This document shows, in pieces, positions 29,070 to 37,571 of a stretch of 64,000 nt of DNA. Position numbers and translations under genes: made by a program. A model generated the notes under the pieces. It made no database searches. It saw only the letters and a program-made list of their open reading frames with translations, and was not told the DNA's origin. Position 1 is the first letter of the stretch; every line of letters begins with the position of its first letter. The stretch comes from Thiobacillus sp. (GTDB lineage: Bacteria > Pseudomonadota > Gammaproteobacteria > Burkholderiales > Thiobacillaceae), in assembly GCA_016124745.1 (NCBI GenBank), contig WGNC01000013.1, forward strand, positions 2,378 to 66,377, read 5' to 3'.

Positions 29070-29779
29070 GCCTCGCCGCCACGCGGATTGAATAGATAGC
29101 CCTCGCCCCGCACGGTGCGGATATAAACGGGTTCGCCCGGGTTGGGTTCGATTTTGCGCCGCAGCCGGGTGACCCGGGTGTCGACGCTGCGGTCGTACGG
29201 ATCCCGCTCGTAGCCTTTCAACATGTCGATCAGCGTGTCCCGCGACATCACCCTGAGCGGGTGCTCGAAAAAGATGCGCAACAGGGCGAATTCGGCAGTC
29301 GACAGTTTTACCTCGACCCCGTCCCGGGTCAGCCGATGGCTGCCGACATCCAGTTGGTAAGGGCCGAACGCAGAAACAGGAGGCGAATCCGCAGGCAGTG
29401 TCTGGGCCTGGCTGCGCCGCAACAGTGCCCGCAAGCGCGCCAGCAATTCGCGCGGGCTGAAGGGTTTGGCCAGATAGTCATCGGCCCCCATTTCCAGCCC
29501 GACCACGCGGTCGACTTCTTCGCCCCGTGCCGACAGCATGAGGATGGGCACATTCGACTGGCTGCGCAGCCTGCGCGCCAGGGACAGTCCGTCTTCCCCG
29601 GGCATCATCAGGTCGAGCACGATGGCATCCGGCATTCCCTGCTCGAGGGTTTGCCACATGGTCGTTCCATCCATTGCCGTATCCACGGCAAAGCCGCTGT
29701 CCCCCAGGTAGGCCTGCAGCAATGTCCGCATTCCGGGATCATCGTCCACCACCAGTATGCGTGCCGATTGGCCATCCAT
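29066..29779 (-). CDS. OmpR-family response regulator
   Basis: ILVVDDD, LDLMMPG, GADDYLAKPF, winged-helix DRSVDTRVTRLRRKIE, TVRGEGY. Confidence 0.94.
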   Translation of the reverse strand: MDGQSARILVVDDDPGMRTLLQAYLGDSGFAVDTAMDGTTMWQTLEQGMPDAIVLDLMMPGEDGLSLARRLRSQSNVPILMLSARGEEVDRVVGLEMGADDYLAKPFSPRELLARLRALLRRSQAQTLPADSPPVSAFGPYQLDVGSHRLTRDGVEVKLSTAEFALLRIFFEHPLRVMSRDTLIDMLKGYERDPYDRSVDTRVTRLRRKIEPNPGEPVYIRTVRGEGYLFNPRGGEA

Positions 29780-35602: not shown

Positions 35603-35839
35603 TCAGGGTACCGGGTGTGCATATTCGTCGACGTAGCGCCCGCGTGACGGCGCCTTGCGTGAAGGCGGCGATTTCCTAGGCACATTGTCGACGGGCTTCC
35701 TGATCTTCTCGTCCTGTTCGGTCTTGGTGCGGTTACGACCGCGACCGGGGCGAACCGATGTACTGACCCCCGCCGGATCGGTCAGCAGCAGGTCCAGATC
35801 CGGAATATGAAATTGCAACGGATTTTTCTGCCCGCTCAT
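35603..35839 (-). CDS. Small hypothetical protein (78 aa), translationally coupled to the FlaF-like gene
   Basis: ATGA overlap at 35836-35839; MSGQKNPLQFHIPDLDLLL...RGRYVDEYAHPVP. Confidence 0.55.
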   Translation of the reverse strand: MSGQKNPLQFHIPDLDLLLTDPAGVSTSVRPGRGRNRTKTEQDEKIRKPVDNVPRKSPPSRKAPSRGRYVDEYAHPVP

Positions 35840-36219
35840 GCTGCCACCTGCCATTCCTTGAGGCTTCCGGCAAGGGAACGGGTCAGCGCGATCAAGCTGC
35901 TCAATCCCTCGGTGCTGGGTGCAGTCTCGCATGCGGCGATTTTGCTGTCTGCATAGACTGACAGGATCAGCAGGTTATGCTGGACTTCCAGCGGCAGTTC
36001 CAGGGTGCCTTCGGCCAGTGCAGCCTGAATCCCATGCCACACGGCACGACTGTCGGCAAGCGCGGCCGTCAGATGGATATGGCGATTGGGCGAACCCCAG
36101 TATCGCTGCACCGCCATCAACTGGGCGGCAATGTCGTCAAGCTGGGTCGCCTCGGCCATCATCACGTCGGCGTGGTCAATGCGGCACTGTGCCTGCTGGA
36201 TCTGTTGTTCCGGGCTCAT
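35836..36219 (-). CDS. FlaF-like flagellar regulatory protein
   Basis: AAGGA RBS before ATG 36219; ALADSRAVWHGIQAAL...LPLEVQHNLLILSVY...LIALTRSLAGSL follows the FlaF pattern as recalled; sigma-28 promoter upstream. Confidence 0.65.
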   Translation of the reverse strand: MSPEQQIQQAQCRIDHADVMMAEATQLDDIAAQLMAVQRYWGSPNRHIHLTAALADSRAVWHGIQAALAEGTLELPLEVQHNLLILSVYADSKIAACETAPSTEGLSSLIALTRSLAGSLKEWQVAA

Positions 36220-36271
36220 TGTTATCCTTGCTGCTTGCTCCTGGACACCTCGCCCATGGATACGCTTCAAG

Positions 36272-36298
36272 TTAGCGGCGAGGACAAGGACAACTTTA
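36272..36298 (-). promoter_or_regulatory. Sigma-28 (FliA) promoter
   Basis: TAAAGTTG-N11-GCCGCTAA vs consensus TAAAGTTT-N11-GCCGATAA: one mismatch per box, exact spacing. Confidence 0.8.
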
Positions 36299-36336
36299 GG
36301 CATGCTAAATGCGTGCCCACGAGCGTTGAAATGCCG

Positions 36337-36870
36337 TCAATCGTCCTGCAGGTTCTGGCCCGGAAACAGGATTTCGGTAAAGCCAAAATGACGCAGGTCA
36401 CGGATACGCATGGGATAGAGCACGCCGTTCAGATGATCGACTTCATGCTGCACCACGCGGGCATGGAATCCCCTGACACTGCGGTCGATCGACTGACCCG
36501 TCGCATCGAAGCCCTGGTAGCGCACGCCCGCATGCCTAGGCACCAGACCGCGCATCCCTGGAACCGACAGACAGCCCTCCCAGCCTTCCTCCACTTCGTC
36601 GGACAATGGGGTCAACACCGGATTGATTAGGACCGTGAGCGGTACTGCTTCGACCTCCGGGTAACGCGGGTTGGTGTCCACCTCGAATAGCACCACCTGC
36701 AGACCGACTCCGATTTGCGGCGCCGCCAGGCCAGCCCCGTTGAGAGATCGCATGGTGTCGTGCATGTCGACAATCAATCGAGCCAGTTCGATGGACGCAA
36801 AATCCTCAACCGGATTCGCGGACACCAGCAGGCGCGGGTCGCCCATTTTCAGGACTTCGCGGATGGCCAT
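36337..36870 (-). CDS. def: Peptide deformylase
   Basis: [25 protein letters not shown]. Confidence 0.95.
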
Positions 36871-37571
36871 GGCTGCTCCAGTTGCTTCAGATCGTTTTCG
36901 TCCAGCCAGCACCATTGGCCAGGTGGCAGGGTCGCGGGCAAGGCATGGTTCCCGATGGCTTCGCGGTGCAGGCGGTCCACACGGTTACCGGTTGCGGCAA
37001 TCATGCGCCTGACCTGATGATATTTGCCCTCGCCCAGGCTCAGGCGCAGCGTGTGGCTGTCGAGAGCCTCGCATGCCAGCGCGGCGATCGGCGCGGGTTC
37101 GTCGTTGAGTTGCACACCAGTACGCAAGGCATCCAGCATGGCGCTGCTCACCGGGTCGGCGCAGGTGGCACGGTACACCTTGGCCACCCCCTTTCTGGGT
37201 GAGATCATGCGGTGGATGAACTGGCCATCATCGGAAAACAACAGCAGTCCCGTGGTGTCCTGATCGAGCCGCCCCACGCATTGCATCCCTCGCTGTATCA
37301 GGGGTGGCGGCAACAGGTCGAACACGCTGGAATGGTGGCTGGGGTGACGCGAGCACTCGTACCCGAGCGGCTTGTGCATCAGCACATAGGCCCTTTCGCG
37401 ATAAACCCAGGCAACGCCGTCGAGCGTCAGCACCAGGCCCGACGGATCGACCTCGGTTTCAGGATTGTCGCAGGGAATGCCGTTGACTTCGACTGCGCCC
37501 GACCGCACGAGCGCCACGCAACCTTTGCGCGAGCCGAATCCTTGTGATTGCAGGGCGCGAACAAGCCTCAT
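36849..37571 (-). CDS. RsuA-family pseudouridine synthase
   Basis: S4 domain, [22 protein letters not shown]. Confidence 0.9.

Follow-up and report, generated by a model that had tools for sequence, protein, structure and literature searches.

Why does a Thiobacillus genome that encodes no flagellum keep a FlaF-family gene behind a FliA-type promoter, joined to a second small gene? The question is raised by two coupled genes on the minus strand of a 64,000-nucleotide stretch from Thiobacillus sp. (contig WGNC01000013.1 of assembly GCA_016124745.1, forward-strand positions 2,378 to 66,377), referred to here as the window. The first open reading frame (ORF1, 35836..36219) encodes an acidic protein of 127 amino acids (aa) of the FlaF family, and the second (ORF2, 35603..35839) a basic, proline-rich and predicted disordered protein of 78 aa, coupled to ORF1 through an ATGA overlap. 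A first-pass annotation of the window had proposed that the two genes form a late-flagellar regulatory module. Our findings indicate that the operon fits better into a FliA regulon that is independent of the flagellum and connected with a second, reduced export system of flagellar type, and the account that we tentatively prefer makes it a FliA-dependent late operon of such a system, coding for a disordered client protein and the FliS-like chaperone that would bind it. Work on FlaF has until now dealt with alphaproteobacteria, where it is treated as a chaperone or regulator of flagellin; in the present case a member of its family is kept without flagellin, behind a FliA promoter that is nearly perfect and beside a new partner. 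Within a limited coverage of the literature, no paper on such a unit in Thiobacillus was found.

Results

The sigma-28 (FliA)-type promoter of the operon lies at 36272..36298 on the minus strand (exact match, cctAAAGTTGtccttgtcctcGCCGCTAAc) and consists of the -35 box TAAAGTTG at 36298-36291, an 11-nt spacer and the -10 box GCCGCTAA at 36279-36272. It matches the sigma-28 consensus TAAAGTTT-N11-GCCGATAA and is suitably spaced from the gene, with 52 nt between the end of the -10 box and the ORF1 ATG at 36219, which is preceded by a Shine-Dalgarno AAGGA at 36229-36225 as ribosome-binding site. In the window, TAAAGTTG-N11-GCCGCTAA had no other match at up to two mismatches, and 0 of 100 shuffles contained one; in the whole 3.35-Mb genome three sites fit TAAAG-N13-15-GCCGNTA, that of the operon being nearest to the consensus. 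No sigma-70-like site was found in the 117-bp gap between ORF1 and the upstream gene def. Conservation was followed through 22 genus genomes and another 78 loci at species level. Invariant boxes around a variable spacer were seen at 77/78 of the species-level loci and 21/22 of the genus loci, and the promoter match is, on this comparative evidence, more than chance. The elements named in the first-pass annotation, i.e., the promoter, the 127-aa ORF with its ribosome-binding site and the 78-aa ORF overlapping it by ATGA, were all recovered, and the promoter and the small gene, whose conservation in relatives had been left to examine, proved to be conserved across Thiobacillus.

ORF1 is predicted to form a four-helix bundle and has an isoelectric point (pI) of 5.0. 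The resemblance to FlaF seen in the first pass is borne out by the Pfam profile PF07309, on which ORF1 scores 38 bits where 23.6 are required, residues 22-118 aligning with positions 18-111 of 113; the match was reproduced in a genome-wide Pfam scan. The NCBIfam FlaF equivalog NF009435 gave 33.4 bits, under its cut-off of 91, and because that cut-off is missed, ORF1 is by its profile match a FlaF homologue rather than a demonstrated functional equivalent. When 1.84 billion cluster representatives were searched exhaustively, no more than 22 relatives came up at an E-value of 0.001 or less. The Thiobacillus-type proteins form one tight group, to which canonical FlaF-like proteins are 25-31% identical; RefSeq names the relatives of ORF1 'flagellar biosynthesis regulator FlaF', a label that probably overstates what is known of the Thiobacillus proteins. 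The AlphaFold2 (AF2) model, built on an alignment of relatives, is a four-helix bundle (predicted local distance difference test, pLDDT, 84; predicted template modelling score, pTM, 0.71), for which Foldseek ranked FliS chaperones first in the PDB (5maw_E, 6gow_E, 6lea_A and 1orj; TM 0.60-0.72). The ratio of nonsynonymous to synonymous substitution rates (dN/dS) of ORF1 is 0.10-0.42. As a FliS homologue by sequence ORF1 was rejected: hhalign gave a probability of 2% against the FliS of a flagellated Thiobacillus, no Pfam FliS match was obtained and a PDB sequence profile search found nothing. Caulobacter FlaF has itself been described as a flagellin secretion chaperone (PMC7591256).

ORF2 has a pI of 10.2, which rises to 10.9 in its C-terminal 50 aa, 16% of which are proline. 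In its family, 70-85 aa in length, the N-terminal 15-25 or so residues are variable and the C-terminal ~50 aa are conserved and end in RGRYVDEYA; 18 columns of the alignment are invariant, RPGR and RGRYVDEYA among them. This division is reflected in dN/dS, which is 0.08-0.34 in the C-terminal 55 codons vs roughly 0.13-1.2 in the ~20 variable N-terminal codons. The AF2 model is devoid of secondary structure (pTM 0.13). Homologues fall in 129 clusters, all unnamed and all of Thiobacillus type, and occupy 96 species-level genome loci; RefSeq lists them as 'hypothetical protein'. A longer C-terminal tail was seen in the ORF2 of the flagellated genome G020 (locus L021). Pfam, NCBIfam, PADLOC, PHROGs and the PDB sequence profile search gave zero matches, Pfam FlbT and the Pfam and NCBIfam FlgM models included, and hhalign against the orphan FlgM of this genome (FlgM-A, described below) gave a probability of 0.7%, and FlbT, FlgM and other known families were rejected as identities of ORF2 on these grounds. 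Judged by its conservation, ORF2 is a real, conserved gene, so that the unknown small partner of the first pass stands as an uncharacterised gene in a genome without FlbT.

In alphaproteobacteria, flbT is encoded next to flaF. ORF2 occupies the corresponding place in a genome that lacks FlbT, is strongly basic and disordered, and belongs to an operon unlinked to export genes, all of which would suit an intracellular regulator and antagonist pair of the FlaF/FlbT style, where ORF2 would be a basic factor binding RNA or sigma/RNA polymerase, sequestered and released by the FlaF-like protein, and its targets members of the FliA regulon (a pilG-like operon, a fimV-like gene and flgM) or the leader of the operon itself. 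The 5' leader (36220..36271, minus strand; predicted transcription start near 36263-36265) contains the conserved stretch GTAACCGTGGGCGAGGTGCCCCGG and is unusually conserved, most columns being at least 80-90% identical among 76 distinct leaders, which suggests post-transcriptional control. A known RNA element was rejected for this region: Rfam had no match in the leader and intergenic sequence at E up to 1, and a candidate 7-bp leader hairpin showed almost no covariation among the same 76 leaders. We consider the regulator pair rather unlikely, given that ORF2 resembles neither FlbT nor FlgM nor any RNA-binding family, that the FliA of this genome already has a canonical FlgM-A, and that Caulobacter FlaF is now seen as a secretion chaperone and not as a regulator proper (PMC7591256).

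The coupling of the two genes is widely kept, the ATGA overlap being retained at 74/78 loci, and dN/dS points to purifying selection on both. The family was found only in Thiobacillus, where T. thioparus DSM 505 and T. denitrificans DSM 12475 possess it; it was present in 22/25 genomes of the genus and in 0/16 other genera of the order. The gene upstream is def (peptide deformylase, 36337..36915, minus strand in the ORF list, as the operon), and the order def - ORF1 - ORF2 is conserved across the genus. It recurs in a distant relative (locus L043, ORF1 47% identical), where PNP_UDP_1, Pep_deformylase and FlaF genes are followed by a 67-aa ORF ending in RGRYVDEYARPPA, and where the promoter has the -35 box TAAAGCCG and the -10 box TCCGCTAT. 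Such constancy would agree with a housekeeping role tied to def and related, for example, to translation or the ribosome; ORF2, whose likeness to basic, disordered peptides associated with ribosomes is one of composition only, would then be one of them, and transcription would either have the sigma-28-like site as one input among several or come mostly from def read-through. This explanation appears very improbable to us, as read-through does not require promoter boxes that stay invariant amid varying neighbour bases, def and the promoter have a conserved hairpin between them, and the family of ORF1 is one of flagellar chaperones. The hairpin is an imperfect palindrome, GGCACGCATTTAGCATGCC, at 36299..36318 on the minus strand, downstream of the def stop and directly next to the -35 box, and was found conserved in the alignment of upstream regions; in distant relatives a GCCGTTCGTCGGC hairpin occupies its place. 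It is possibly a terminator or insulator of def, or an operator.

The genome under study (G000 in our set) is 97.8% complete. Outside the window, genes were called with an ORF and GC3 (third-codon-position GC) filter and Pfam/NCBIfam checks rather than curated annotation. Across the genome there were 0 matches to flagellin/FlgL (PF00669), 0 to rod and hook proteins (PF00460, with 6 in each flagellated congener) and 0 to FlbT (PF07378, positive in a Caulobacter control). Homologues of the FliE, FliK, FliL, FliM, FliN, FliD, FliS, FlgA-L and FlgN of a flagellated relative were not detectable in the genome, and on the contig of the window the structural genes of that relative had no homologue except a CheY-like receiver, in agreement with the first-pass observation that the window holds no flagellar structural genes. 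That annotation had singled out fliA, flbT and flagellins as the genes to look for in the genome: fliA is there, in one copy, while flbT and flagellin are missing.

An island of 52.7 kb in G020, a complete genome that encodes a flagellum, carries fliC, fliD, fliS, fliE-R, che genes, flgB-L, flgM and flgN. The genes that flank this island lie ~100 bp apart in one contig of the genome under study, and the nearest relative, G024, has a contiguous match to the same empty junction; the flagellar absence is therefore real and older than the split from G024, and a binning or assembly artefact was rejected on the same grounds. In the genus survey, rod and hook genes were present in 21/31 genomes, most of them with flagellin, and in none of the remaining 10/31. 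G002 keeps flgB-L but lacks a canonical FliF, and flagellin has no strong match there (the sole Flagellin_N match looks like FlgL), and remnants of 2.4 kb and 9 kb occupy the island site in G043 and G008, respectively. This variable content indicates that the flagellar island was repeatedly lost or decayed among Thiobacillus.

The operon is intact in 6 genomes without rod or hook genes, and since the split of the two aflagellate species G000 and G024 (dS 0.55) its omega (dN/dS) has been 0.14 for ORF1 and 0.12 for the C-terminus of ORF2. It could still serve the true flagellum as a late-acting regulator or chaperone in flagellin synthesis or export, and persist as a relic not yet decayed in aflagellate genomes; FlaF family membership, the sigma-28-type promoter and the rod, hook and mostly also flagellin genes of the 21 genomes counted above would fit such a role. 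Several observations make it improbable. The island has its own FlgM, FlgN and FliS, and because it encodes its own FliS the canonical flagellum is not obviously in need of a FlaF. In three Thiobacillus (L002, L004 and L028:15860-16122) the regions upstream of flagellin contain a conserved CTTAACTTT-N11-GACGATTC, which looks different from the operon promoter and is not of the TAAAG...GCCG.TAA type. Operon and promoter are intact, at omega 0.1-0.4, in the six rod/hook-less genomes, including two with a shared empty island site, and the family is absent from the 16 other genera of the order, 11 of which have a flagellin match. The late-flagellar module of the first pass is thus not sustained: flagellin/FlgL, rod and hook genes are lacking, the island is cleanly absent and the operon is under purifying selection in aflagellate lineages.

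What this genome does keep is a reduced, paralogous set of flagellar-type export genes, recognised by their Pfam domains. The first operon, at G000:C25:81461-89034 (L032:11461-19034), reads fliF'-fliG-fliH-fliI-fliJ-(a 154-aa unknown without Pfam match)-fliO-fliP-fliQ-fliR, with a short FliF' of 457 aa; it is flanked by ppk, CYTH-CHAD and SixA-like genes on one side and by dapA on the other, and its proteins are 31-67% identical to the true flagellar ones of a flagellated congener. The second, at G000:C38:45302-50718, consists of flhB', flhA', flhF', an flhG-like gene and fliA. Its FlhB' (273 aa) covers positions 2-254 of the 348-position FlhB model and is devoid of the C-terminal autocleaving, substrate-switch domain. 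The FlhG-like ORF is degenerate in appearance. The fliA of this operon (G000:C38:50008-50718) encodes the only FliA of the genome (TIGR02479, 279.5 bits against a cut-off of 189.6), so the FliA that the first pass presumed in a betaproteobacterium does exist in this Thiobacillus. The orphan flgM (FlgM-A, 102 aa; TIGR03824, 67 bits against 40.75) lies at G000:C37:29347-29655 (29266-29655 with its promoter), between a DUF1015-like and a copZ-like gene.

This set is distinct from the flagellum. FlgM-A occurs in 30/31 genomes of the genus at 72-98% identity, and FlgM-B, that of the island, is 32-40% identical to it; the short FliF' is found in nearly all genus genomes, the canonical FliF is confined to flagellated genomes and to other genera, and outside the genus canonical FliF alone was seen. 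Flagellated genomes possess two copies each of FliA, FlgM and FliF and aflagellate genomes the reduced-type copy alone, the canonical copies being 32-43% identical to FliF' and FlgM-A. G020 has both flhDC-motAB-flhB (390 aa)-flhA-flhF-flhG-fliA-B-motCD and flhB'-flhA'-flhF'-fliA-A. Leftovers of a true flagellum were rejected as the origin of fliF-R and flhBA-fliA, given the two sets in G020 and the genus-wide distinct paralogues FliF', FliA-A and FlgM-A. From these genus-wide paralogues, and from the canonical-only FliF outside the genus, it follows that the reduced set is distributed like the FlaF-like/ORF2 operon, both being restricted to the genus. Among 25 genera of the order, Thiobacillus alone has the FlaF-like gene, ORF2 and the reduced set.

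Other promoters of the same type were sought in the genome. A relaxed genome-wide scan for the sigma-28 motif gave 16 matches, about chance level, and for this reason only sites conserved across species were retained as regulon members, namely those of flgM-A, a pilG-like gene, a FimV_N gene and the operon. The flgM-A promoter is CTAAAGAAA-N11-GCCGATAA or CTAAGGTTT-N11-GCCGTATT at at least 25/29 loci, and TAAGGTTT-N11-GCCGTATT in this genome. The promoter CTAAAGAAG-N11-GCCGTAAT (G000:C40:92799-92825, minus strand; 30/30) precedes a pilG-like gene for a single-domain response regulator, which heads a pilG/pilH-like chemosensory cluster, and CTAAAGTTG-N11-GCCGGAAT (G000:C14:11999-12025, minus strand; 16/18) precedes the gene of a FimV_N protein (PF25800, 52.5 bits). 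At all three the boxes are conserved and the spacers variable. Because sigma-28-type promoters are conserved upstream of the pilG-like operon and the FimV_N gene, our findings suggest a FliA control of polar functions or of type IV pili in Thiobacillus. Moreover, since the flagellin motif differs from that of the operon type, the two FliA paralogues may differ in promoter preference. Among the matches of the chance-level scan, two (G000:C30:9670-9697 and C3:52263-52289, both on the plus strand) lie upstream of paralogous DUF4124-like secreted proteins with the motif YKW.D..G...Y.DQPP.

Discussion

The account that we tentatively prefer, that of a FliS-like chaperone and a disordered client in a FliA-dependent late operon, can be laid out as a sequence of events. 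The reduced export gate would secrete FlgM-A, which would free FliA-A, and this in turn would transcribe the bicistronic ORF1-ORF2 operon as a 'late' operon. ORF1, which resembles FlaF in sequence and, by weak structural matches, FliS in its predicted fold, would then bind unfolded ORF2 at its conserved C-terminal part, hold it soluble and inactive, and hand it to FlhA' for export. ORF2 would take the place of flagellin and would be exported, or otherwise released, to act, either as a secreted factor or as a feedback regulator of polar and type IV pilus functions. The contrast in charge and order between the two proteins, ORF1 being acidic and ORF2 basic and predicted disordered, was counted as client-like, together with the N-terminal variation and C-terminal invariance of ORF2. 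Where flagellar type III export substrates have a disordered N-terminal signal and a region for chaperone binding, what is seen in ORF2 is predicted disorder along its entire length, with the N-terminus variable and the C-terminus conserved.

A number of observations weigh against this account. Four-helix bundles are a generic fold, the Foldseek E-values that relate ORF1 to FliS are weak (0.07-0.2) with other four-helix bundles close behind, and the profile comparison of ORF1 with FliS gave, as stated above, a probability of 2%. ORF2 is proline-rich and non-helical, in which it differs from the segment of flagellin bound by FliS. The operon never adjoins the reduced export genes, and the link between them consists of co-distribution and a common promoter type. 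In flagellated species with two FliA paralogues, either could use the operon promoter. Finally, the fliF' of G020 (G020:C1:1149680-1150965) is in two frames (residues 1-351 and 375-457), the split appearing to be a frameshift or a sequencing error, and because the operon is intact in that genome, it may not need the reduced machine.

A more inclusive version of the preferred account, which we regard as possible and yet doubtful, concerns the machine as a whole. Thiobacillus would possess a second flagellar-type machine made of an MS-ring with FliG, FliHIJ, a FliOPQR-FlhA gate, a switchless FlhB, FlhF/FlhG-like proteins and its own FliA/FlgM checkpoint, without rod, hook or filament, which would outlive the flagellum; its sigma-28 output would comprise the pilG-like gene, the FimV_N gene and the operon, and the FlaF-family chaperone would pilot ORF2 as a late substrate or secreted signal. 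The genus may in any case offer a natural system for asking what the sigma-28/FlgM secretion checkpoint senses and controls without a hook, how flagellar export machines are repurposed, and how flagellar and type IV pilus programmes become cross-wired. Because the cultured strains T. thioparus DSM 505 and T. denitrificans DSM 12475 carry the operon, these predictions are open to bench work.

Comparison with Known Systems

The flagellar hierarchy of Caulobacter runs through CtrA/FlbD and sigma-54. With the FlaF of Caulobacter and other alphaproteobacteria, ORF1 shares homology over nearly its full length as well as a small, acidic and all-helical character, and in both cases a small partner gene lies alongside, in what sequence suggests is a late position of a flagellar-type hierarchy. 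The Thiobacillus unit differs from the FlaF/FlbT system in that ORF1 is 25-31% identical and below the equivalog cut-off, in a genome without flbT or flagellin, and in that it stands outside a flagellar cluster, under a sigma-28 promoter, with an unrelated disordered and basic partner of 78 aa.

The pairs FliS-flagellin, FlgN-FlgK/L and FliT-FliD offer a second term of comparison. As modelled, ORF1 and ORF2 would resemble them in a predicted FliS-like fold, an acidic chaperone, an unfolded partner whose conserved part is C-terminal, and a class-3-like sigma-28 control; they differ in that ORF1 has no sequence relation to FliS and the putative client is non-axial, proline-rich and without predicted helices of the kind that FliS clamps. 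The enterobacterial flgM-flgN class-3 operon likewise combines a sigma-28 promoter with a small disordered protein and a helical chaperone, and the Thiobacillus genome retains the FliA and FlgM of the enterobacterial checkpoint, with a sigma-28 promoter on flgM. However, ORF2 is not FlgM, a separate FlgM-A exists, and there is no hook-basal body to sense.

For the export genes, the nearest comparison is with the non-flagellated Lysobacter enzymogenes, in which genes of the flagellum's type III secretion system (FT3SS) are kept, apparently functional and co-opted for other export (PMC7688988). That FT3SS is a remnant of the single flagellar system of the species, hook-associated genes included (PMC7688988), whereas the Thiobacillus genes are paralogues that form a set apart, found alongside a complete flagellar system in flagellated species, with no detectable rod, hook, FliE, FliM or FliN, with a truncated FlhB and with a FliA and FlgM of its own. 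By homology the unit belongs to the Pfam FlaF family; by analogy, it would work most like a flagellar chaperone-substrate pair or a class-3 operon of the flgMN type.

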